Source of the DNA: Candidatus Limnocylindria bacterium
Lineage (GTDB): Bacteria > Chloroflexota > Limnocylindria > P2-11E
Direction of reading: 5' to 3'
Length of the DNA stretch: 64,000 nucleotides
Assembly: GCA_036002305.1 (NCBI GenBank)
Contig: DASYTL010000035.1
Location: 149,444-213,443, forward strand
A model generated the notes under the pieces. That model saw only the letters and a program-made list of their open reading frames with translations. It did no database searches and was not told the DNA's origin. Position numbers and translations under genes: made by a program. Of this stretch, positions 4,504 to 29,649 are shown one piece after another (the first letter of the stretch is position 1; every line of letters starts with the position of its first letter).

Positions 4504-5846
4504 GCCGCCTCGGCCGCCGGGGCGATCTCTTCGAGTGAGCGGCCGCGGGTCTCCTCGCCGAGGAGCGCGACCGCGGCCGCCGTGACCAGCAGCATCGCCA
4601 TGAACAGCGCGAACGTGCCGTTCACCTCGATCGAAGAGACGAGCACCGGAGTCAGGTACGGGCCGATGATCCCGCCGACGCGCCCCACCGCCGCGGCGAC
4701 CCCGGCGCCGGTCGCGCGAACGGCGGTCGGGTAGAGCTCGGGCGTGTACGTATAGACGATGCCCCATGCCCCAAGGTTGAAGAACGAGAGCAGCGCCGCC
4801 CACACGAACGCATCGCTCCCCGCGCCGGCGTTGCCGAACATGTACGCGGCGACGGCCGTCCCGAGGAGGTACGTCACGAGGGTCGGCTTCCGGCCCCAGC
4901 GCTCCACGAGCCAGGCGGCGCTGAAGTATCCCGGCACCTGAGCGAGTGTCGACAGGAAGAAGAATTCGTTGCTGCGGACCTCCGAGAGCCCGCGCGCGGC
5001 GAGGATCGACGGTATCCAGAGGAAGATCCCGTAGTAGGTCAGGACCACTCCGAACCACAGGATCCAGAGCATCGCGGTCCGGCGCGCGTACCGACCGCTC
5101 CAGAGCTCCGCGATCCGCGTCCGGCCGCCACGAGTCGGTGGCACGGCGGGCGCGAGCGTCAGCAGCGCTCCCCCGCCCGCGCGCTCCACCCGCCGCACGA
5201 TCGCGTCGGCTTCGGGCGCGCGCCCGCGTTCGGCAAGGAAGCGGGGTGACTCGGGGAGCGCGCGCCGCAGGTACGCGACGTAGAGCGCCGGCAGCGCACC
5301 CACGGCGAAACCCCAGCGCCACCCGAAGTTGGCTACCACGGTGATCGCCACGATCCCCGCGAGGATCGTCCCGTACGCCCAGAACGACTCGAGGAGCACG
5401 ATCATCCGTCCGCGCTGCGCACGGGGCGAGAGCTCGCTGACGAGCGTCGCCACGACCGGGAGCTCGCCGCCGAGACCGAGCCCGGCGACGACGCGGGCGG
5501 CCAGAAGGGTCTCGAAGCTGGGCGCGACCGCCGACAGCGCGCTTCCGAACGAGAAGACGACGAGCGTGGCCGTGAATACGGCGCGGCGCCCGTACCGGTC
5601 CGCGAGCCGGCCGGCCGCCGCGGCGCCGATGAACATTCCGAGAAAGGTCGCGCTTGCGATGAGCCCGACGCCCGTCGCGTCGAGCTTGAACTCGGCGCGG
5701 ATCGGGGCGAGGAGGAAGCTCAGCATGAGGACGTCCATCGCGTCGAACATCCACCCGAGCCCCGACAGGATGAGCAGGCGCCAATGGAAGCTGTTCAGTG
5801 GCACGCGGTCGAGCCGCGCGACGAACGTCTCGGCGCTGGTGCTCAC
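4500..5846 (-). CDS. MFS transporter
   Basis: 12-TM pattern; LGWMFDAMD and GRLADRYGRR (MFS motif A-like). Confidence 0.85.
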   Translation of the reverse strand: MSTSAETFVARLDRVPLNSFHWRLLILSGLGWMFDAMDVLMLSFLLAPIRAEFKLDATGVGLIASATFLGMFIGAAAAGRLADRYGRRAVFTATLVVFSFGSALSAVAPSFETLLAARVVAGLGLGGELPVVATLVSELSPRAQRGRMIVLLESFWAYGTILAGIVAITVVANFGWRWGFAVGALPALYVAYLRRALPESPRFLAERGRAPEADAIVRRVERAGGGALLTLAPAVPPTRGGRTRIAELWSGRYARRTAMLWILWFGVVLTYYGIFLWIPSILAARGLSEVRSNEFFFLSTLAQVPGYFSAAWLVERWGRKPTLVTYLLGTAVAAYMFGNAGAGSDAFVWAALLSFFNLGAWGIVYTYTPELYPTAVRATGAGVAAAVGRVGGIIGPYLTPVLVSSIEVNGTFALFMAMLLVTAAAVALLGEETRGRSLEEIAPAAEAA

Positions 5847-5849
5847 CGG

Positions 5850-6902
5850 CTAATTCCCCAGACAGCCCTCGGCGGCGAGGAGCTCGGCGTTGAGCACCGA
5901 CGCACCCGCCGCCCCGCGGATCGTGTTGTGGGTGAGGACGACGAACTTCATCCCCAGCACAGGGTCTTCGCGGACGCGTCCGACGGTGGCCGCCATCCCG
6001 CGCTCGGTGTCTCGGTCGAGAATCGGCTGCGGCCGGTCTCGCTCGTCGCGCACGTGGATTGGACGCTCGGGCGCCGTCGGCAGGCGGAGCTCCTGGGGGC
6101 GGCCGCGGAAGCTCCGCATCGCGTCCTTGACCGCGTCCACCGGCGGGGAACCGCGTAGGGCGATGCTCACCGCCTCGGTGTGGCCGTCCCGCACCGGGAC
6201 GCGGTTGCAGTGCGCTGAGAAGAGGAAGTCGGCGTCCACGAAACGTTTACCGTCCCAGGTCCCGAGGAACTTCCTCGTCTCGACCTTCATCTTCTCCTCT
6301 TCCTCGCCGATGAAGGGGACGACGTTGTCGAAGGCGTCCAGGGACGCGACGCCCGGGTATCCGGCGCCGGAGAGCGCCTGCATCGTGGTCACGACCGCGC
6401 GCTCGATCCCGAACGTCTTGTGCAGCGGGGCGACGGCGAGCGCGAACCCGATCGCGGAGCAGTTCCCGTTCGTCACGAGCGAGCCGGTCCAGCTGCGCTT
6501 GCGTCGCTGCACCTCGAGCGCGTGCATGTGCTCGGGGTTGACCTCGGCGATCATCAGCGGGACGTCATCGTCCATGCGGTGCGTCTTCACGTTGGAGAAG
6601 ACGTGGTGCCCGGTCTTCGCGAGCGCGGCCTCCCAGAGCTCGGCGGCCTCGGACGGGAGCGCCGAGAAGCAGACCTCGGCGTCCAGATCCGCCTTCGTCG
6701 GCTGGAGCGTCATGTCCGCGACACCCGCCGGCATCTCGCCGGGCGAGTGCCACGGCGTGACGTCGCCGTAGCGCTTGCCCGCCTTCGCGTCGCTCGTGGT
6801 GAGCGCCGCGATCTCGAACCACGGATGGGCGGCGAGCAGCCCGATGAAGCGCTGCCCGACCGTGCCCGTCGCGCCGAGGACCGCGACCTTCCGCCTGCGC
6901 AT
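5850..6902 (-). CDS. asd: aspartate-semialdehyde dehydrogenase
   Basis: VAVLGATGTVGQRF Rossmann motif, NGNCSAIG active-site Cys, SGAGYPG. ATG at 6902; the longer 499-aa ORF extension is rejected. Confidence 0.92.
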   Translation of the reverse strand: MRRRKVAVLGATGTVGQRFIGLLAAHPWFEIAALTTSDAKAGKRYGDVTPWHSPGEMPAGVADMTLQPTKADLDAEVCFSALPSEAAELWEAALAKTGHHVFSNVKTHRMDDDVPLMIAEVNPEHMHALEVQRRKRSWTGSLVTNGNCSAIGFALAVAPLHKTFGIERAVVTTMQALSGAGYPGVASLDAFDNVVPFIGEEEEKMKVETRKFLGTWDGKRFVDADFLFSAHCNRVPVRDGHTEAVSIALRGSPPVDAVKDAMRSFRGRPQELRLPTAPERPIHVRDERDRPQPILDRDTERGMAATVGRVREDPVLGMKFVVLTHNTIRGAAGASVLNAELLAAEGCLGN

Positions 6903-6952
6903 CGCGCTCAAGTCTGACGCATCGGCCGGCGCCGGCCCACGGGGTCCGCGGC

Positions 6953-7590
6953 TCAGCGGCTCATGCACCGGTAACGCCACACCGCGAGCGGCGCGAAGAT
7001 CGCCACGACGACGATGACCAAGATGATTGTGAGCTCGACGGGCCGCTCGGCCGGGAGTCCCGTCGCCGCGAATGGATTGGGATTGCCCCAGAGCTGGCGT
7101 GTCGCGGCCGTGAGCGCGCTCACCGGGTTCCACTCGGCGACCGGCTTGAGCCACGCGGGAAGGGTGGACGTGGGCACGAACACGTTCGACAGGAACGTCA
7201 GCGGGAACAGGACGGTGAACGAGAGCTGCTGGGTGACCTCGACCGTCGGCACCCACAGACCGAGCCAAACACCGATCCAGACCATGGCGAAGGCGAAGAG
7301 CAGCAGAAGGCCGACCCCGGCGAGGAGGCCGGGATCCCCGAATGCACACGCCACCCGACCGCGAGCCCTGAGAGCATCAGCACGACGAGGATGCCGGCGT
7401 TGTAGACGACGTCGGCGAGCGCGCGCCCGCTCACGACAGCCGAACGGGCCATCGGCAGCGAGCGGAATCGATCGATGATCCCCTTGCTCAGGTCGCTCGT
7501 CATGCTGATCGCCGTCGTCGCGGCGGCGAACACGATCGTCTGCGCGAAGATGGCCTTCGGCGACGATCGCGTCCACTGGGAAGTGCGACC
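6953..7590 (-). pseudogene. ABC-2 type transporter permease remnant (N-terminally truncated, frameshifted)
   Basis: SPKAIFAQTIVFAAATTAISMTSDLSKGIIDRFRSLPM...GWRV is in one frame. GLLAGVGLLLLFAFAMVWIG...LPAWLKPVAEWNPVS is in another. The frame switch lies near 7340-7365, an in-frame stop at 7591-7593 removes the N-terminal TMs, and there is no partner ATPase. Confidence 0.75.
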
Positions 7591-7667
7591 CTACCCCCGA
7601 ACGGCGCCGGGACTCTATGAGGAAATACACATTCGCGGGCCCCGCCCGTCGGTCGGGGCTCAGCGCG

Positions 7668-8318
7668 TCAGGCGGGCATCGCCGCGAGCCAGCGATGCTG
7701 CCGGTCGATCCAGCGCAGGAGGCGCAGATGCGCGGCCGTGAGCGCCGCGAGCATCTCGTCGTCGCTCAGGACGCGCGCCCCCTCCAGCCGGATCCGCCAC
7801 TGGCCACGCGAGCCGGCGTCGTATTCGATCGTCTCGTAAAGCAGCTGCCCCTCGCGCCGGATGTCGAAGGCGCGGATCGCGAGGCCACACCGCTCGTGCT
7901 CCGTCGGCGTGGGGTCCAGCCCGCTCTCCGGGTCGTACCGCTCGATGAGCAGGATGCCGTTCGGCGTGAGGTGTCGCCGGCACGCTAGGAGGAGGGCGAT
8001 CCGCCCTGCCTCGTCGGGGGTGTTCACCAGGTTGCTCATGAGCAGCACGCCGCGGAACGTGCGCCCGAGATCGAGGTCCTCGATGCGGGATTGGACCTTC
8101 TCCGCTCCCTCGATGAGCTCGAGCTTCTCGGGGTCCATGTCGACGGCGACGACGCGCCGGCCGAGCGCGAGCAGCGCGTGCGTGATGCGACCCGGGCCGG
8201 CGCCGAGCTCGAGGATCTCGGCATCCTCGGGGATCTCGCGATCGATGAGCGCTGGCTCATCAGCGGGCTCGAGCAAAGGGTAGAGGTCGACAGGCGCCCC
8301 AAGGTCGCGCATGCGCAA
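7668..8318 (-). CDS. class I SAM-dependent methyltransferase
   Basis: ILELGAGPGRIT motif I, VVAVDMD motif II. Confidence 0.8.
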   Translation of the reverse strand: MRMRDLGAPVDLYPLLEPADEPALIDREIPEDAEILELGAGPGRITHALLALGRRVVAVDMDPEKLELIEGAEKVQSRIEDLDLGRTFRGVLLMSNLVNTPDEAGRIALLLACRRHLTPNGILLIERYDPESGLDPTPTEHERCGLAIRAFDIRREGQLLYETIEYDAGSRGQWRIRLEGARVLSDDEMLAALTAAHLRLLRWIDRQHRWLAAMPA

Positions 8319-8350
8319 CGAGTCTGGCAGACGGCAGGACGCCGAGCGCT

Positions 8351-8926
8351 TCAGGTCGCGAAGCGGACGAGGTCCACCAGCAGCTCCGGGCTCACCCGCT
8401 GCGCGCGCCTCAATACTGCGCCGTTCTCATCGAGCACCCGGTAGCCGTTCGCGAGCGGAGTCACGTTGTCGGGGACGATCGTGCGGACCAGATCGCCGTG
8501 CTCGTCGAAGATGAGGTAGCTCGGCGTGTATCGCACCCCGTTCGCGTCGCCGATCGCGCGACCGGCCGGGGTCGGAAGCTCGACGCGAACGAAACGCGCG
8601 GCACCACGCATGCTCGTGGCGGCGAACTTGATGATCTGACGGTTCGCCATGCAGATGAGGCAGTAATTCGAGTAAAGCTCCACGACGACCGGCCTGCCAC
8701 CACGGACGAGCCGCGCGAGGTCCTCCGGCGCCGTGATGTCGGGTGGCCCCGGGCGCAGAGCGAGCCAGACCCCGCCGAGCACGACGAAGTCGATGAGGAC
8801 GGTGGCGATGAGGGCGGGCACCGCCGCCATGCCGACCGGTCCGAGGGTCAGCGAGATCCCGAGGAAGGTCGGCACGACGACGGCGAGCGCGAGGATGAGA
8901 TAGCTGAAATTGTTGAGGGCCCTCAA
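8351..8926 (-). CDS. membrane-anchored thioredoxin-like protein
   Basis: Two N-terminal TM helices, then a thioredoxin fold with a CLIC (CxxC) motif. TTG start overlaps the upstream TGA (TTGA). Confidence 0.65.
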   Translation of the reverse strand: MRALNNFSYLILALAVVVPTFLGISLTLGPVGMAAVPALIATVLIDFVVLGGVWLALRPGPPDITAPEDLARLVRGGRPVVVELYSNYCLICMANRQIIKFAATSMRGAARFVRVELPTPAGRAIGDANGVRYTPSYLIFDEHGDLVRTIVPDNVTPLANGYRVLDENGAVLRRAQRVSPELLVDLVRFAT

Positions 8927-9555
8927 ACTACCGGCGTCCTGAGACGACCCGTCGGCCCTGCGCCGTCTGTCAGGATTGCCTTCGGGACCGGGCTGAATAG
9001 GCGGTCCGCGACTATGCCTTCCCACCAATTCACGTATCGCCAGTTCTGGATCGTCAGCGCCGCGAAGAGGACCGCCGTGAGGATATACAAGAGCCAGAAC
9101 CGTGGGCCGAAGCTGGCTAGTCCAAGCGCGGATGCGGCAGTGATCCCCATGATCCCAAGGACGGCCGCGAGGACGACGCCAGCTGAGCTGTGAACGAAGA
9201 GCCAGAGCCTTGTTGCTCGCTCCCTATATGGATCGTCCGCAACCCGGTATGTCCATAATTCCCACTCTTCCCACAGGCGCGACCTGGTGGGTGCGTCGAT
9301 TCCGATAGCCTCGAGACGCGCACGCACGACTTGGAGCGGTCGTCTTTGTGGCGATTCGTAAACGCGGAAGAGATTGAAGAGTAGCCAGTAGAGCTGGTGC
9401 ACCGCGTAACCAGCGACCAAGACCGCAACACCCGCCAGCGCGGCGTCGACGCCTGTGAAGCCACTCATCCCGCCTCCAGGCACCACCCGCAGGAGCGGCA
9501 GAACCACAAGGAAGCCGGGGACGAGGTACCGAAGGATGACCTCCACGCCGAACAT
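8923..9555 (-). CDS. hypothetical polytopic membrane protein
   Basis: 4-5 predicted TM helices; no recognisable family; locally lower GC (roughly 55-60% by eye). Confidence 0.5.
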   Translation of the reverse strand: MFGVEVILRYLVPGFLVVLPLLRVVPGGGMSGFTGVDAALAGVAVLVAGYAVHQLYWLLFNLFRVYESPQRRPLQVVRARLEAIGIDAPTRSRLWEEWELWTYRVADDPYRERATRLWLFVHSSAGVVLAAVLGIMGITAASALGLASFGPRFWLLYILTAVLFAALTIQNWRYVNWWEGIVADRLFSPVPKAILTDGAGPTGRLRTPVV

Positions 9556-9577
9556 CAACGGGCCCTTCCAGCGGCCT

Positions 9578-10966
9578 TCAACGGTGGAACTCCTCGTGGA
9601 TCAGCTTCACCGCCTTCTCGCGGTCCCGCTCCATGACCACGAGCGAGATGTTGAGCTCGCTCGAGCCCTGCGCGATGGCGACCACGTTCACGCCGGCCTT
9701 CCCGAGAGCGGTGAAGACGCGCGCCGCGACCCCGGGCGTGCCGCGCATCCCCTCCCCCACCGCGGCCACGATGGCCACCGGCCGCTCGACGTCGATCTTC
9801 TCGACGTCGTGGCGGCGCAGCTCCGCGTTGAACATCTTCTCGAGCGCGGCCTTGAGGCGATCGGTCGCATCCTCCGGCACGACGAGGCAGATCGAGTTCT
9901 CGCTCGAGGACTGGCTGATCATCATCACCGAGACGCGCTCCGCGGCCGCAGTGTCGAAGACCCGCGCGGCGAAGCCCGGCACGCCACTCATGCCCGCGCC
10001 CTGCACGGTGATGAGGCCGAGCCCCCCGAGCGAGGTGGTCGCCTTCACCACGCTGCCGTCCTTCCGCGCCTCACCCGTGATCGTCGTGCCCGCGTCGGAG
10101 GGCGCGAACGTGTTCAGGATGCGCACCGGTATTCCCGCCTCGATGGCCGGCAGCACGGTCCGCGGATGGATGACCTTCGCGCCGAAGTAGCTCAGCTCGG
10201 CGGCCTCGGCGTACGACATCGTGGCGAGCGGTTTCGCCCCCTTCACGATGCGCGGGTCGGCGCTCATCACGCCGCTCACGTCCGTGTAGATGCGCAGGTC
10301 GTCGGCTCCCGTCGCCGCGGCCAGCACGGCGGCGGAGTAGTCGGAGCCGCCGCGCCCCAGCGTCGTCGTGACCCCGTCGACGGTCGAGCCAATGAACCCG
10401 GTCACCACTGGGACCACGCCGTAATCGAGGCGTGAGTCGAGCTCCTTGCTGGCCCGAGCCCGCGTCTCGTCGACGACGGGGTTCGCGTGGCCGAAGGCGT
10501 CATCGGTGATGAGGAGGCCCTCCGTCGAGAGCGCCTCGGCCTTCGTCCCCTTGTGGTTCAGCACGGCGGCCACGATCGGTGCGGAAATGCGTTCGCCGTA
10601 CGACGTGATCGCGTCGAGGGTGCGCGCGGTGCACTCGCGGAGGATCGCGACGCTCTGGAGCAGCGCGTCGGTCCGCTCCGTGAGGTCGGCGATCTCCTTG
10701 AGGACGTCGGCCGACTCGAAGCCGAGCGCGTCGGCCGCGAGGTTCTTGTGCGCCGCCGCGAGCCCGAGCAGGGCTTCCTGCGCGGCCTGGGCGTCTCCCG
10801 CCTCGGACGCACGCGCCGCGGCGATGAGCGCGTCAGTCGTGCCGGCGGTCGCCGACACCACCACGATGCGCTCGCCCTTGGTCGCCTTGACGATCTCCGC
10901 GACCCGGAGGAGCGCGGCCGGCGACGCGACGGACGTTCCGCCGAACTTGAGGACCGTCCGGGTCAC
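9578..10966 (-). CDS. lysC: aspartate kinase (monofunctional, C-terminal ACT domains)
   Basis: VLKFGGTSV, VVVSATAGTTD, RGGSDYSA. GTG start overlaps the hom stop (GTGA). Confidence 0.92.
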   Translation of the reverse strand: MTRTVLKFGGTSVASPAALLRVAEIVKATKGERIVVVSATAGTTDALIAAARASEAGDAQAAQEALLGLAAAHKNLAADALGFESADVLKEIADLTERTDALLQSVAILRECTARTLDAITSYGERISAPIVAAVLNHKGTKAEALSTEGLLITDDAFGHANPVVDETRARASKELDSRLDYGVVPVVTGFIGSTVDGVTTTLGRGGSDYSAAVLAAATGADDLRIYTDVSGVMSADPRIVKGAKPLATMSYAEAAELSYFGAKVIHPRTVLPAIEAGIPVRILNTFAPSDAGTTITGEARKDGSVVKATTSLGGLGLITVQGAGMSGVPGFAARVFDTAAAERVSVMMISQSSSENSICLVVPEDATDRLKAALEKMFNAELRRHDVEKIDVERPVAIVAAVGEGMRGTPGVAARVFTALGKAGVNVVAIAQGSSELNISLVVMERDREKAVKLIHEEFHR

Positions 10967-25175: not shown

Positions 25176-26423
25176 CTAGCCGCCGCCGGGCGGCGTCGCG
25201 AGCAGCTCCTCGGCGGCGAAGCCCTGGCCGCGGACGAGCGCCAGGACCGCGTCGGCGTGCGCCCGGTCACGCGTGTCGACGATGACGTCGAGTCCGACGC
25301 GGCCGAGGGCCGCGTACGGGCCGAGACGATGGATCCCGACGTGGAGGATGTTGATGTGCTCGCGGGCGAGGAGTCCGGTGAGCAGATGCAGCATTCCCGG
25401 CTTGTCGTCGAGCCAGGTCCGGAACGCGAGGTAGCGGCCGGCAGAGACGAGTCCCTGCTGCAGCGCCTTCGTCAGCAGGTTCGCGTCGATGTTCCCCCCG
25501 CTGATCACGACGCCGACCTTCCGGCCGCCCACGCGTCCGTCCGCCTCGAGCACGGCACCCAGGCCGGCCGCGCCGGCACCCTCCGCGAGGAGCTTCGCCC
25601 GCTCGAGCAGGACGACGATCGCGCGCGCGATCGCCTCGTCACTCACGGTGATGACGTCGTCGACGAGGCGCTTCACGATCGCCAGCGTCCGCTCGGCGGG
25701 TCGACGAACCGCGATCCCGTCGGCGATCGTCGCGGCGGGCCGCTCGACCACTTTGCCGGCCGCGAAGGAGTCGGCGAAAGCCGACGCGCCCGCCGCCTGG
25801 ACGCCGATGATCCGCGGCCGCGGCGATCGTGCCGCGGCGACGAGGGCGACGCCGGCGATGAGCCCGCCGCCGCCGACCGGAACGACGAGCGTGTCGACGT
25901 CGGGCACGTCCTCGAGGAGCTCGAGCGCGAGCGTTCCCTGCCCCGCGATCACGTCGTCGTCGTCGAACGCGTGCACGTACGCGCGCCGCTTCTCGCGTGC
26001 GAGCTCGAGCGCCGTCGCCTGCGCCTCGTCGTAGCTCTCGCCGGAGAGGACCGTCTCCGCCCCGGTTCGCTGGATCGCGATGAGCTTCGCGAGCGAGACG
26101 CCCTGCGGGAGGACGACGGTGGCCGGCACGCCGACCAGCTGCGCCGCGTACGCGATCCCCTGCCCGTGGTTGCCGGCGGACGCGGTGACCACGCCGCTCG
26201 CCCGCTCGCGCGGGTCTCTCCGCATGAGCGCGTGGAGCGCGCCACGTATCTTGAACGCCCCGGTCTTCTGGAGGTTCTCGAGCTTGAGGTAGACCTCGCG
26301 GCCCGACAGCGTCGAGAGCGCCTCCGAACGCTCGGTCGGGGTGCGGCGGATGTGGGGCGCGATGAGCCTCGCGGCGTCGACGACCGCCGCTTGGTCGAGC
26401 GATCGGGGCGTCACGACGCTCAT
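25176..26423 (-). CDS. ilvA: threonine ammonia-lyase (threonine dehydratase) with C-terminal ACT-like domain
   Basis: LKLENLQKTGAFKIRGA (PLP Lys), SAGNHGQG, VPVGGGGLIAG. Confidence 0.9.
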   Translation of the reverse strand: MSVVTPRSLDQAAVVDAARLIAPHIRRTPTERSEALSTLSGREVYLKLENLQKTGAFKIRGALHALMRRDPRERASGVVTASAGNHGQGIAYAAQLVGVPATVVLPQGVSLAKLIAIQRTGAETVLSGESYDEAQATALELAREKRRAYVHAFDDDDVIAGQGTLALELLEDVPDVDTLVVPVGGGGLIAGVALVAAARSPRPRIIGVQAAGASAFADSFAAGKVVERPAATIADGIAVRRPAERTLAIVKRLVDDVITVSDEAIARAIVVLLERAKLLAEGAGAAGLGAVLEADGRVGGRKVGVVISGGNIDANLLTKALQQGLVSAGRYLAFRTWLDDKPGMLHLLTGLLAREHINILHVGIHRLGPYAALGRVGLDVIVDTRDRAHADAVLALVRGQGFAAEELLATPPGGG

Positions 26424-26430
26424 CGTGCCA

Positions 26431-27651
26431 TTACGCCAGCCGGTCGACCGCGCGTCTGAGGCGCCGGACCCCCTCGTCGATACGATCTGGCGACGGTCCG
26501 CTGATCGAGAAGCGGAAAGCGTTCGAGAGATCGCGGTCCACCGCGAACGCCGCGCCCGGCACGAACGCCACGCCTTCCGCGAGGGCGACGTCGAGGAGCA
26601 CCCGCGCGTCCACGTGTTCCGGCAGCCGGACCCAGAAATAGAAGCCGCCCGCGGGGTCATTCCAGGTCACCGCCGCGCCCGCGAGCTCGCGCGCCAGGGC
26701 CGTGCGCCCGCGGTCCTGCTTCTCGCGGTAGAGCGCGCGAAGCCGCTCGAGATGGGCGGCGACGCCGCCGCGGCGGTGGAACTCGATGACTATGCGCTGC
26801 GCGAGCGTGCCCGTGCTCGAGTCCATCGTCTGTTTCGCCTTCGCCATCCGGCCGATCGTCTCGGGATCCGCGACCACCCAGCCGACCCGTAGCCCGGGCA
26901 GGAACGTCTTCGAGAACGTACCGATCGAGACGACCCTCCTGTCCAGCGCGGCGAGCGGCGGGAGGTCCGGGCCCCGGTAGCGCAGCAGCGCGTACGGATC
27001 GTCCTCGACCACGATCGCCTCGTAGCCCGCCGCGAGGGCGAGTAGGGACTCTCGGCGCTCGAGCGACAGGGTCTCCCCCGAGGGATTGCTGAAGTTCGGC
27101 ACAACGAAGAACATCCGCGGCCGCGCGTTCGCGCGGCGGAGCAGGCGGGCGGCTTGCGCGACGTCGAGGCCATCGCCGTCGACAGGCGCCTCCAGGACCC
27201 GCGCGCCGTGATTGCGAAACGCCGACAGGGCGTTGGCGAAGCCCGGCGATTCCGCGACCACCACGTCGCCAGGCCGGAGGAAGACCCGGCACGCGAGATC
27301 GATCGCCTGCAACGCTCCGGCGCTGACGAGCACCTCCGCCGAAACGGCGCGGATGCCGCGTGCGCGAGCCTGATCCGCCACGAGCTCTCTGAGCTCGGGC
27401 TCGCCCTCGGTGATGCCGTAGCCGAGCGCGCTCGCACCCTGCGTCCGGATGACCGCGGCGGCGAGATCTTCCGCTCCGACGATGTCGAGCGCCTCGCGGG
27501 CAGGCGAGCCGACCGCGAAGGAGACGATGTCGCGTGTCTGGCGCGCGACGATCCCGATCGTCTCGTCGATGAAGGAGCCGAACACTTCGTGATCCGGGCG
27601 CGGCGCGACGCCTTCCTTCTCTTGCGCGCGCACTTGCCTGACGGTCGCCAT
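26431..27651 (-). CDS. PLP-dependent aminotransferase, class I/II (LysN / 2-aminoadipate aminotransferase-like)
   Basis: NFSNPSGETL, GTFSKTFLPGLRVGW (PLP Lys), FRFS. Confidence 0.85.
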   Translation of the reverse strand: MATVRQVRAQEKEGVAPRPDHEVFGSFIDETIGIVARQTRDIVSFAVGSPAREALDIVGAEDLAAAVIRTQGASALGYGITEGEPELRELVADQARARGIRAVSAEVLVSAGALQAIDLACRVFLRPGDVVVAESPGFANALSAFRNHGARVLEAPVDGDGLDVAQAARLLRRANARPRMFFVVPNFSNPSGETLSLERRESLLALAAGYEAIVVEDDPYALLRYRGPDLPPLAALDRRVVSIGTFSKTFLPGLRVGWVVADPETIGRMAKAKQTMDSSTGTLAQRIVIEFHRRGGVAAHLERLRALYREKQDRGRTALARELAGAAVTWNDPAGGFYFWVRLPEHVDARVLLDVALAEGVAFVPGAAFAVDRDLSNAFRFSISGPSPDRIDEGVRRLRRAVDRLA

Positions 27652-27884
27652 CGCCGTGCCCTCCTCTTCGATGGGATCGAAAAGGCCTCCCTTTCGGGAG
27701 GCCCTCTGCTCGCCTGGATCTGGGTCGTTGGTGCGGTCAGCCTCCCGAACGCGAGGAGAGCCCCGGCTCCGGGGCGATCGACGGCGACGGGACGATGGCG
27801 AGCCGCATGTGAGGAGGGACCGTAGCGGAGCGCCGCTCGCGCGGTCAACATGGGTCGCGCGGGCGGTGCAGCCCGCACAGTGTG
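27652..27884 (-). promoter_or_regulatory. attenuator-like 5' leader A (upstream of aminotransferase-ilvA)
   Basis: Contains a 23-codon uORF (27737-27808) whose UGA lies in the UCGCGUUCGGGAGGCUGAC box, an alternative pairing partner GGCCUCCC, a terminator-like hairpin, and then GAGGAGG-N7-AUG. Homologous to leader B. Confidence 0.6.
27678..27703 (-). terminator. leader A terminator/sequestor hairpin
   Basis: RNA GGCCUCCC-GAAA-GGGAGGCC followed by UUUUCG. Confidence 0.6.
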
Positions 27885-28154
27885 TCAGCCGCCGCTCATC
27901 GCCGGCAGGATCTCGACGACCCGCTTGCCGCGGAGATCGCCGTCCCCTTCGAGGAATCGCACGTCCTCACCGTCGACGAAGACGTTCACGAACCGGCCGA
28001 ACTCCCCGTCTCGGAGCACCCGTGTCGCGAGCTCCGGGTAGCGGTCGGCGATCTGGCGCACCAGAGCCGAGACGTCCGGGGCGTCGAACGACAGCGTCGC
28101 GCTGCCCCCGGCCGCGGCGCGCAGCGGCGTGGCGAGGCGAACGGTGATGCTCAT
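27885..28154 (-). CDS. ThiS/MoaD-family sulfur-carrier protein (C-terminal Gly-Gly)
   Basis: 89 aa beta-grasp-like protein ending ...EILPAMSGG-stop. ATG overlaps the ThrC-like stop (ATGA). Confidence 0.8.
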   Translation of the reverse strand: MSITVRLATPLRAAAGGSATLSFDAPDVSALVRQIADRYPELATRVLRDGEFGRFVNVFVDGEDVRFLEGDGDLRGKRVVEILPAMSGG

Positions 28155-29395
28155 CGCAGCTCGTCCACGTAGGCGCCGCGGAACTCGTCCGCGTCGGCGC
28201 CGATGACCGGGCCGAGCGGTCCCGACACGGGCTGACCCTTGTACGCGTTGCCGGTGATGTAGAGGACGACGCTCTCGCCACCCTGGAACGCGTTCCGCTT
28301 CGCGAGGGCGCGAGCAGCCGCGACCACGACGCCCCCGGCGGGCTCGGCGAGCACGCCTTCGGTCCGCGCGAGGAGGGCGCAGGAGTCGAGGACGTCCTCG
28401 TCGGTGACAGCGGCGGCGGACCCGCCGCTGGCGCGGATCGCGGCGACCGAGCCGTCGCCGTCGGCGGGCGTGCCGATCGCGAGGGAGCGTGCCACCGTCG
28501 TGGGCGCGCGCACCGGCCGGACCTCGCGGAACCCCTCGAGCACCGCGTCCGAGACCGGCGCGCATCCGACCGGCTGCGCCGCGTGGATGCGGCAGGGTGT
28601 GTCGTCGACGAGCCGTGCCGAGCGGAGCTGCGTGACGGCCGTCGCGGTGCGGGTGAGCAGCGCGCCGGATCCGACCGGCACGACGACGTGGTCCGGGAGC
28701 GTCCAGTCGAGCTGCTCGGCGGTCTCGAAGAGAAGGGTCTTCGAGCCCTCGGCGTAGTAGGGCCGCAGCGTGAAGTTGACGAATCCCCAATGCTCCTCGT
28801 CGGCGAGGCGGGCGCAGAGCCGGTTGACCTGGTCGTACGTGCCGCGGACGCGGACGACGGTCGCGCCGTACGCGGCGGCGCCGGCGACCTTACTTTCGTC
28901 GGTCGCCTCGGGCACGAAGACGAACGCCCGGAGCCCGTTGCGCGCCGCTGCCGCCGCGACGGCGCCCGCGAGATTCCCGGTCGACGCGCAAGCCAGCGTG
29001 TCGAGTCCGACCGCGAGCGCGCGCGCCAACGCGAGCGCGACCGGCCGGTCCTTGAACGAGAGCGACGGATTGCGCGAGTCGTCCTTCAGGTAGAGACGCT
29101 CCACGCCGATCGCCGCCCCGAGACGCGGCGCGAGATGAAGCGGGGTCCAACCGACGGTGTAGTGCGACGCCGGCTCGGCGACCGGGAGCAGCGGCGCATA
29201 CCGCCAGAGCGAACGCGGACCGCGCGTGATCTCCTCGCGCAGGAGGTCGGGATCGAGCGCCGCGAGGTCGTATTCGGGCTCGATCGGGCCGTAGCAGTCC
29301 GAACACACGTACCGCTCGTCGGCGGGCTGGAGCAGCTGGCACGCGCGACAGCGAAATCCCCGCAGAGCCGTGGTTCTTTCGAGCGTCGTCGCCAT
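28151..29395 (-). CDS. threonine synthase family PLP enzyme with N-terminal zinc ribbon (ThrC or MetM-like)
   Basis: CRAC...CSDC ribbon, NPSLSFKDRP (PLP Lys), ASTGNLAG. Translationally coupled to the sulfur-carrier gene. Confidence 0.88.
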   Translation of the reverse strand: MATTLERTTALRGFRCRACQLLQPADERYVCSDCYGPIEPEYDLAALDPDLLREEITRGPRSLWRYAPLLPVAEPASHYTVGWTPLHLAPRLGAAIGVERLYLKDDSRNPSLSFKDRPVALALARALAVGLDTLACASTGNLAGAVAAAAARNGLRAFVFVPEATDESKVAGAAAYGATVVRVRGTYDQVNRLCARLADEEHWGFVNFTLRPYYAEGSKTLLFETAEQLDWTLPDHVVVPVGSGALLTRTATAVTQLRSARLVDDTPCRIHAAQPVGCAPVSDAVLEGFREVRPVRAPTTVARSLAIGTPADGDGSVAAIRASGGSAAAVTDEDVLDSCALLARTEGVLAEPAGGVVVAAARALAKRNAFQGGESVVLYITGNAYKGQPVSGPLGPVIGADADEFRGAYVDELR

Positions 29396-29649
29396 CGTGA
29401 GACCTCCACATAAAAGGAGAGGCCTCCCGTTCGGGAGGCCTCCTATCTGCCTGGATGCGCCGAAGTCTCTGAGTCAGCCTCCCAAACGCGAAGCGGGCCC
29501 CGCAATCGAGGCCATCGCCATGGACATAGGCATCGTCTGGGCGCGACTCACCACGACGAGCCTACGAAGCGGTCCCACCCGCAGTCAAACGAGAGGTGCA
29601 CTCTGCACGAACGGCCGAGGTCAAAACGGCCCATCCCTAGACTCGCGCG
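29396..29649 (-). promoter_or_regulatory. attenuator-like 5' leader B (upstream of ThrC-like/ThiS-like pair); also the divergent hisZ promoter region
   Basis: 19-codon uORF MPMSMAMASIAGPASRLGG (29474-29533) with its UGA inside the UCGCGUUUGGGAGGCUGAC box, a terminator-like hairpin, and then GGAGG-N8-AUG. Confidence 0.6.
29411..29442 (-). terminator. leader B terminator/sequestor hairpin
   Basis: RNA GAGGCCUCCC-GAAC-GGGAGGCCUC followed by UCCUUUUAU. Confidence 0.6.

Follow-up and report, generated by a model that had tools for sequence, protein, structure and literature searches.

A threonine synthase-like enzyme and its Gly-Gly sulfur carrier as a probable MetM/MetO-type homocysteine synthesis pair, with a candidate methionine-codon leader, in an uncultured soil bacterium

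Does a gene that annotation would name threonine synthase make threonine when it is joined to a gene for a sulfur carrier? The question is raised by two genes on a stretch of 64,000 nucleotides (the window; contig DASYTL010000035.1, C35 in our numbering, positions 149444-213443) from a Candidatus Limnocylindria bacterium, represented by a 3.16-Mb metagenome-assembled genome of 45 contigs that is 84% complete (GCA_036002305.1). Both lie on the minus strand:

28151 to 29395, minus strand: metM-like enzyme gene, encoding P0002, a 414-aa ThrC-family, fold-type II pyridoxal phosphate (PLP) enzyme with an N-terminal zinc ribbon of four cysteines
27885 to 28154, minus strand: metO-like carrier gene, encoding P0001, an 89-aa beta-grasp sulfur carrier of the ThiS/MoaD/CysO type whose C-terminus is exactly Gly-Gly

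We hold with good confidence that this pair would make homocysteine from O-phosphohomoserine, with the thiocarboxylate of the carrier as the source of sulfur. The two proteins are very probably orthologs of MetM and MetO, which makes this a known system and not a new one. In Streptomyces albulus, MetM and MetO with MoeZ and Mec reportedly support O-phospho-L-homoserine-dependent homocysteine synthesis, as Hasebe, Adachi, Maruyama and Hamano are said to have described in 2024 (Appl Environ Microbiol 90:e01247-24). According to GapMind in 2026 and its preprint, there is experimental support for MetM, MetO, Mec and MoeZ, and threonine synthase is a frequent misannotation of MetM (PMC13759103). 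The substrate, the product, the sulfur donor, the partnership with an E1-like activating enzyme (E1) and the attenuation mechanism considered below are what we infer for the present pair from sequence and genomic context. A MetM/MetO-type reading had already been offered in the preliminary description of this stretch, and it finds support in the clade to which the enzyme belongs, a separate thrC-thrB locus, synteny, the riboswitches of orthologs, active-site residues and the absence of MetX and MetA.

The gene pair and its conservation

The enzyme P0002 has the zinc-ribbon cysteines C16-x2-C19 and C31-x2-C34 and the PLP-lysine motif S113-F-K-D-R-P118, and it matches the Pfam PALP model with 238 bits. 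It stays under the cut-off of PRK08197 (266 versus 303 bits), and with just 47 bits from the cysKM model it tests negative for membership in the CysK/CysM family. The carrier P0001 matches Pfam ThiS with 36.9 bits (cut-off 22.5), shows weak matches to SAMP1 and archaeal MoaD, and ends in PAMSGG directly before its stop codon. At the junction of the two genes, which reads CTG CGA TGA GC, the TGA stop of the enzyme gene and the ATG start of the carrier gene share the letters ATGA, an arrangement which indicates that metM-metO is a bicistronic, translationally coupled unit. The preliminary description had reported this overlap between a ThrC-like enzyme and a Gly-Gly carrier, and the open reading frames (ORFs), the letters of the junction and the Pfam and NCBIfam domains all bear it out; it had also allowed that the pairing might be incidental, a suggestion that does not stand against the conservation described next.

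An ortholog scan using one genome per species returned, as its best 80 loci, enzymes with 42-53% identity to P0002 from Chloroflexota, Dormibacterota, Actinomycetota, Acidobacteriota, Planctomycetota, Nitrospirota, Nitrospinota, Cyanobacteriota, Verrucomicrobiota, Elusimicrobiota, Omnitrophota, Kiritimatiellota and Aquificota; no Streptomyces locus was among these best 80. Of the 80 species-level loci, 60, from more than 10 phyla, have a P0001-like ORF next downstream in the same orientation, and the identical 4-nt gene overlap recurs in about 20 of them. The carriers in question mostly end in AGG, some with 1-5 extra residues. Genes for E1, CysM or Mec adjoin the ortholog in about 10 of the 80 loci and thrB does so in 7; the ortholog is surrounded by CysM, E1 and Mec genes in Nitrospirota and certain further loci. 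Within the genus, 17 of the 18 other genomes hold an ortholog of 78-83% identity, which is followed by the carrier at every one of the 11 genus loci examined. Since the carrier follows the ortholog so consistently, both in the 60 species-level loci and in the genus, the pairing of enzyme and carrier is ancient and conserved and not incidental.

Two variations on this arrangement were encountered. The first is an 80-aa NIL-domain ORF inserted into the pair in 11 Chloroflexota loci (Pfam NIL 54-55 bits in the two that were tested):

L034, L057, L058, L060, L062, L065, L073, L077, L079, L082 and L093: NIL-domain ORF between the enzyme and carrier genes

A hidden Markov model built from these 11 ORFs found no such partner among all six-frame ORFs of at least 40 aa in the genome of the window. 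The second is seen in L031 (7226-8338), where carrier-like and E1 matches share one reading frame with no intervening stop; this is possibly a carrier-E1 fusion, or else an artefact of assembly or frame.

Separation from canonical threonine synthase

The position of P0002 was determined with a quick tree of 133 rows and an IQ-TREE analysis of 73 rows with ultrafast bootstrap and SH-aLRT support, and the two agree. The proteins of known structure from Aquifex aeolicus, Bacillus subtilis, Thermus thermophilus and Mycobacterium tuberculosis form, along with the thrC product encoded on contig C16 of the same genome, a canonical ThrC clade with support of 100/99, to which the zinc-ribbon proteins are the sister group. 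A 48-row clade, likewise supported at 100/99, unites P0002 with all sampled loci of the ortholog scan, with cyanobacterial genes and with a gene of Nonomuraea gerenzanensis, which sits among the Actinomycetota. The cyanobacterial loci L088, L092, L102 and L103 are inside this clade with a carrier downstream and no S-adenosylmethionine (SAM) riboswitch. Two further zinc-ribbon paralogs of the same genome, on contigs C32 and C29, fall outside it. The one on C32 (233041-234534) scores 589 bits against PRK08197 and adjoins a cystathionine beta-synthase gene, and that on C29 (163188-164489) is clustered with ORFs of the short-chain dehydrogenase and luciferase-like oxidoreductase types.

The clade is also set apart by its active-site residues. 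In an alignment to T. thermophilus ThrC (Thermus numbering counted from the alignment, with the PLP lysine as K61 and N154, S155 and R160 as further reference positions), Thr88 is replaced by Leu in 98, Asn157 by Arg in 97 and Arg160 by Tyr in 98 of 100 clade sequences, and one residue is inserted after Asn154. P0002 has all three replacements, as L142, R211 and Y214. With L142 and Y214 at the positions of Thr88 and Arg160, and a place outside the 100/99 canonical clade, it tests negative both for the ThrC phosphate-site residues and for membership in the ThrC clade. Thr88 and Arg160 of the Thermus enzyme are residues which we take to be ligands of the substrate phosphate, and in ThrC the retained phosphate presumably steers the addition of water; given that both are replaced, the remodelled phosphate site of the clade fits a different fate of the intermediate. 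P0002 shares with canonical ThrC (PDB 1UIM, 2ZSJ, 6CGQ and 2D1F, at 134-165 bits) the fold, the PLP lysine motif and probably the substrate O-phosphohomoserine, and differs from it in the extra N-terminal zinc ribbon, the inserted residue, the three replacements and the separate clade. The PDB holds no structure of a MetM.

These results bear directly on the possibility that P0002 is after all a second ordinary threonine synthase, or a ThrC that moonlights as threonine deaminase, next to a carrier that serves another pathway. Its score against the NCBIfam thrC model TIGR00260 (221 bits) exceeds the cut-off of 167.1, its best matches among solved structures are all threonine synthases, homologs of 77-83% identity carry that label, and an ilvA-type gene lies two genes downstream. 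Moreover, a Microcystis aeruginosa 'ThrC' encoded beside a metO-like gene, and probably of the same clade, is reported to act in vitro both as a threonine synthase and as a threonine deaminase, in assays where no carrier thiocarboxylate was tried (PMC12172450). However, a canonical thrC (312 bits) is already present along with thrB, P0002 lies outside the canonical clade with Thr88 and Arg160 replaced, and the carrier accompanies its orthologs in 60 of 80 species. The orthologs are preceded by SAM riboswitches rather than by threonine-related control, and the ilvA-type gene, with the aminotransferase gene before it, is no conserved neighbor beyond the genus and is separated from the pair here by a terminator-like element. 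The TIGR00260 model evidently captures the MetM-like clade too, and we regard a threonine synthase function of P0002 as highly improbable.

Candidate homocysteine routes in the genome

If P0002 is a MetM-type enzyme, the rest of the genome should supply its substrate, activate its carrier and use its product. The beginning of the aspartate pathway is encoded in the window itself:

~5850 to 6900, minus strand: asd
9578 to ~10960, minus strand: aspartate kinase gene (lysC)
10963 to ~11915, minus strand: homoserine dehydrogenase gene (hom)

The genome has four ThrC-family genes, namely the one for P0002, the C32 and C29 paralogs and, on C16, the canonical thrC (312 bits to TIGR00260) with thrB (237 bits) immediately next to it. 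The only E1, on C41, has an N-terminal rhodanese domain and matches the PRK08762 MoeB model with 595 bits and MoeZ with 409 bits. A MetE-type methionine synthase is encoded on C39, so that thrB, a rhodanese-MoeB E1 and a methionine synthase are all present as context for the supply of substrate and the use of product; no MetH-type domain was found in the genome. The C39 region (68429-70380) consists of two adjoining Meth_synt_2-type ORFs (267 and 87 bits), which suggest a split or two-domain MetE-type synthase. Contig C45 carries a cluster of CysM, a CysO-like protein ending in GGR and a JAMM protease (Mec), and C43 a MoaD-MoaE fusion. A third CysO/SAMP-like carrier, ending in SGGAE, is encoded at C15:8967-9287 with no PLP enzyme adjoining.

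With these components the following course can be proposed. The lysC, asd and hom products of the window would make homoserine, which ThrB from C16 would phosphorylate, and the single rhodanese-MoeB/MoeZ-type E1 from C41 would adenylate the Gly-Gly terminus of the carrier on the way to its thiocarboxylate. The ThrC-like enzyme would bind O-phosphohomoserine as an external aldimine and eliminate phosphate to give a vinylglycine-type intermediate, to which the thiocarboxylate sulfur would be added at C-gamma, whereas canonical ThrC adds water at C-beta. An acyl shift and hydrolysis would then release homocysteine and regenerate the carrier, and the MetE-type synthase from C39 would methylate homocysteine to methionine. 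Because P0001 already ends in Gly-Gly, no trimming by a Mec/JAMM protease should be needed.

The need for such a route is suggested by what the genus lacks. For MetX the genome gives only a 20-bit chance match and for MetA no match, and among 31 related genomes scanned neither protein was found in any of the 19 that belong to the genus; since all 19 lack them, the absence is no assembly gap. In the sister family MetX occurs in four genomes, three of which are without a gene of the MetM-like clade and one of which has both. None of the MetM-like gene, MetX and MetA is present in the small-genome families of the class (G072, G074, G076-G078 and G080; 1.2-2.3 Mb, 93-99% complete), whose members are either methionine auxotrophs or use another homocysteine route.

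This inventory settles most of what the preliminary description had said, or had left to be looked up, about the surroundings of the pair. It had placed asd, lysC and hom in the window, where all three indeed lie at about 5.8-12 kb, and had seen no E1, JAMM protease or thrB there; the genome search agrees, as the only copies are on C41, C45 and C16 and none is in the 64-kb window. The enzyme does stand apart from canonical ThrC, in separate 100/99 clades with members of its own mostly paired with a carrier, and the genome does contain a second thrC, the canonical copy adjoined by thrB. A MoeZ/ThiF-like E1 exists in the form of the rhodanese-MoeB/MoeZ-type protein, neither metA nor metX occurs in this genome or the 18 others of the genus, and the carrier belongs to no molybdenum cofactor or thiamine locus, MoaD being fused to MoaE elsewhere and the CysM-CysO-Mec cluster lying separately.

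The same inventory bears on the idea that the pair is a thiocarboxylate-dependent synthase for some other sulfur metabolite, for instance an O-phosphoserine-using cysteine synthase, or an enzyme of free sulfide with which the carrier is loosely associated. The precedent is M. tuberculosis CysM/CysO/Mec, which makes cysteine from O-phosphoserine and CysO thiocarboxylate and thus likewise combines a fold-type II PLP enzyme, a protein thiocarboxylate and a phosphorylated hydroxy-amino acid; the carriers belong to the same subfamily, and the E1 is shared. P0001 is a CysO/SAMP-type carrier, with 36-45% identity to the carriers encoded after orthologs elsewhere, 38% to that of Nonomuraea and 37% to the CysO-like protein of its own genome. 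An attempt to separate MetO from CysO by carrier sequence was uninformative, in that this CysO-like protein is nearer to the MetO-like set than P0001 is; as the two are inseparable by sequence, the assignment of P0001 as MetO comes from its context. In addition, some orthologs, those of Nitrospirota included, have CysM, E1 and Mec genes around them, and positions 208-209 of P0002, beside the substrate site, deviate from the clade consensus. Against this, P0002 is of the ThrC and not of the CysK/CysM family, and a complete CysM-CysO(GGR)-Mec cluster is already present on C45. The SAM riboswitches and methionine-codon leaders of the ThrC-like clade point to methionine and not to cysteine, thrB, whose product makes O-phosphohomoserine, is a recurrent metabolic neighbor, and a genus without MetX and MetA needs a source of homocysteine. 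A product other than homocysteine is therefore very unlikely in our estimate.

Homocysteine could also arise from O-phosphohomoserine by a different enzyme, leaving the ThrC-like pair redundant or cryptic. Two Cys/Met-metabolism PLP enzymes (PF01053) are encoded on C32, and plants pair O-phosphohomoserine with a cystathionine gamma-synthase (bioRxiv 10.64898/2026.09.15.751699). One of the two fits the M. tuberculosis-type MetB model; the distance from its gene to the cystathionine beta-synthase gene is about 5 kb, which agrees with a role in reverse transsulfuration. The other (C32:247752-248960), which could provide such a plant-like route, passes the cut-off of no family model. Its gene is coupled to one for an ATP-grasp protein, next to that of a MocR-type regulator, and such a setting is not one of methionine metabolism. 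The pair has been kept at 78-83% identity by 17 of the 18 genus relatives, and its leader is conserved; this argues for an active role, and we find it hardly credible that the PF01053 enzyme carries the pathway in its place.

Besides the TIGR00260 score, the Microcystis activities and this alternative enzyme, several observations weigh against reading the pair as MetM/MetO. P0002 falls on a long branch in a divergent subclade of 7 rows (86/82) with L026 and L028 of the Dormibacterota, its nearest named relatives, and in both of these the carrier is not adjacent to the gene. At the positions of its F208 and T209, beside the signature, 92 of 100 clade sequences have V or I and 93 of 100 have N. 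The identity of the genome's CysO-like protein to MetO-like proteins elsewhere reaches 49%, which is closer than P0001 comes. The genome is incomplete, and the orthology of P0002 to S. albulus MetM (UniProt A0A059WBP2) is one that we infer through the shared carrier, the SAM riboswitch of orthologs and a quoted cyanobacterial identity, and not by direct placement.

The likeness to S. albulus extends to several features. In both, a gene for a ThrC homolog stands beside that of a ThiS/CysO-type Gly-Gly carrier, a MoeZ/MoeB-type rhodanese E1 is encoded elsewhere, a separate canonical thrC exists, the enzyme is mislabelled as threonine synthase, and control is linked to methionine, as deduced here from the leader sequence. 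The differences are that S. albulus has a SAM riboswitch where the present locus has a methionine-codon leader with a terminator; that GapMind lists trimming of MetO by Mec (PMC13759103), which the Gly-Gly end should make needless here; that the E1 here is of the PRK08762 type with an N-terminal rhodanese domain; that MetX and MetA are absent throughout the genus, so that the pair would be the sole rather than a redundant route; and that the present host is an uncultured soil bacterium of the Dormibacteria class.

The significance of the pair lies mainly in the correction of annotation. Homologs of P0002 number in the thousands in soil metagenomes, where their source label is "threonine synthase" (as for the homologs of 77-83% identity), and most likely they make homocysteine; relabelling them changes predictions of methionine prototrophy for abundant uncultured soil lineages. 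In the genus of the window, with 19 genomes and no MetA or MetX, the pair would close an apparent gap in methionine synthesis. The clade can be told from ThrC by its STGNL and LRPYY motifs, a carrier directly downstream and a SAM-I riboswitch upstream. The system itself has been known since 2024 and has entered GapMind, so the pair is no discovery of a new kind; its less ordinary parts here are the control by a leader peptide and the duplicated copy of that leader.

Probable methionine-linked control

The link of the clade to methionine is seen most directly in its SAM-I riboswitches. In 13 of the 14 clade loci scanned, L026 and L028 among these 13, the gene has an RF00162 element on its own strand directly before it. 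Of 50 of the genomes from the ortholog scan, searched in full, 35 had a SAM-I element, which in about 28 of the 35 stood, by coordinates, directly before the clade gene and was usually the sole copy; none was found at the cyanobacterial, Nitrospirota and some other clade loci. As a proxy for the Actinomycetes we used the locus of the cultured N. gerenzanensis (L117), the one match of a tblastn search against a plasmid collection, where a SAM-I riboswitch (68.7 bits) is followed by the clade gene and then by a 91-aa carrier ending in AGG. Its replicon (NZ_LT559118.1, 11.85 Mb, 10 annotated features) is filed as a plasmid and is evidently a chromosome. The order of riboswitch, enzyme and carrier matches that reported for S. 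albulus, where metM has a SAM riboswitch upstream and metO adjacent; MetM shares 51.6% identity with a cyanobacterial homolog encoded beside a metO-like gene (PMC12172450). These SAM-riboswitch operons (L117, L026, L028 and loci of Chloroflexota, Acidobacteriota and Planctomycetota) resemble the present one in belonging to the 100/99 clade, in the L/R/Y signature and mostly in the downstream carrier, and differ from it in the SAM-I control, in the NIL gene of 11 Chloroflexota loci and, in L026, in having asd, lysC and thrB instead of the carrier. In the latter (5802-10466) one SAM-I riboswitch heads a row of metM-like gene, asd, lysC and thrB in which the carrier gene is missing, which would be a SAM-controlled joining of the aspartate pathway to a homocysteine synthase; with thrB in the operon, the enzyme is tied to the supply of O-phosphohomoserine.

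No SAM riboswitch was found in the window, either at the gathering threshold or at E<=10, and the riboswitch scan gave a weak Phe_leader-like match over the terminator region only. What precedes the metM-like gene instead, within an upstream region of 254 nt, is a short upstream ORF (uORF), a box and a terminator:

29474 to 29533, minus strand: leader uORF, MPMSMAMASIAGPASRLGG and stop, with 4 Met in its first 7 codons
29477 to 29483: GGGAGGC box, contained in the last uORF codons plus the stop
29418 to 29443, minus strand: intrinsic terminator hairpin GGAGGCCTCCC-GAAC-GGGAGGCCTCT, then CCTTTTATGT, ending 22 nt ahead of the start codon of the metM-like gene

The hairpin has 11 pairs, 8 of them G-C, and an energy of -17 kcal/mol; the scan found 4 terminator-like sites in its whole region, where shuffled sequences would give 0.6. 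The box repeats the sequence of the terminator's 3' arm and can pair with the 5' arm, which it does in folds of truncated transcripts where the 3' arm is still untranscribed. A uORF of 23-24 codons, typically MRLVLIPPMPIAPMPGLSARPGG and stop, with 3-5 Met as well as Ile and Pro, is found at the same site in 11 genus relatives (L106-L116, within the 230 nt upstream of each ortholog), where it always ends at the conserved GGGAGGCT box, and the terminator is kept too.

These features suggest an attenuator in which a ribosome reaching the uORF stop would mask the box and let the terminator form, while one stalled at the methionine codons would leave the box free and allow transcription to read through. 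It is probably by such a Met-codon leader and its terminator that metM-metO expression follows the supply of methionine, and the leader may be a functional analogue of the SAM riboswitch. The genus relatives have the uORF and terminator, and L026 and L028, from sister genera of the same class, have SAM-I elements; comparison of these loci indicates that within a single class the control of this gene has passed from one type to the other, riboswitch or leader-peptide attenuator. We know of no described methionine example of this kind of amino-acid attenuator.

A second element homologous to this leader, as judged by alignment to it, lies on the other side of the pair:

27680 to 27808, minus strand: second leader-like element
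27737 to 27808: its uORF, MRLAIVPSPSIAPEPGLSSRSGG and stop, ending in SRSGG and with no internal Met
27680 to 27704: its hairpin GGGCCTCCC-GAAA-GGGAGGCC-TTTT

The GGGAGGCTGA box is kept along with the hairpin. The element occupies a 233-nt spacer (27652-27884) between the carrier and aminotransferase genes that is absent in the genus relatives, in which these two genes directly adjoin or overlap. The element has the look of a duplicated attenuator, now standing before the aminotransferase and ilvA-type genes; its probable roles are to terminate the metM-metO unit and to control the downstream genes independently. The whole picture, in which MetM/MetO is the only homocysteine route of the genus and is governed by a Met-codon leader attenuator instead of the SAM riboswitch of orthologs in sister genera and many other phyla, with a duplicated copy that has lost its Met codons and now precedes aminotransferase-ilvA, is one we put forward tentatively, its combined probability falling slightly short of even.

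The genes beyond the second element are:

26431 to 27651, minus strand: class I/II PLP aminotransferase (COG1167/MocR-aminotransferase-like by domain matches, no helix-turn-helix), a downstream neighbor in the genus only
25176 to 26423, minus strand: ilvA-type threonine ammonia-lyase with one ACT domain (TIGR01127, 432 bits), starting 7 nt past the aminotransferase stop

The aminotransferase gene directly follows the carrier gene in 10 of the 11 genus loci, often overlapping its end, and is not conserved beside orthologs in other phyla; one possibility for its product is a methionine or 2-oxo-acid transaminase. Both genes were considered as parts of the system and set aside, since they are absent from the ortholog loci of other phyla and a terminator-like element splits them from the pair here; the linkage of the aminotransferase to the pair is kept only inside the genus, and the ilvA-type gene is probably not part of homocysteine synthesis. 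A different regulatory element follows the carrier gene in the Chloroflexota locus L043, where the gene order is thrC, thrB, metM-like gene and carrier gene and a T-box leader (104 bits, 7116-7542) lies directly past the latter.

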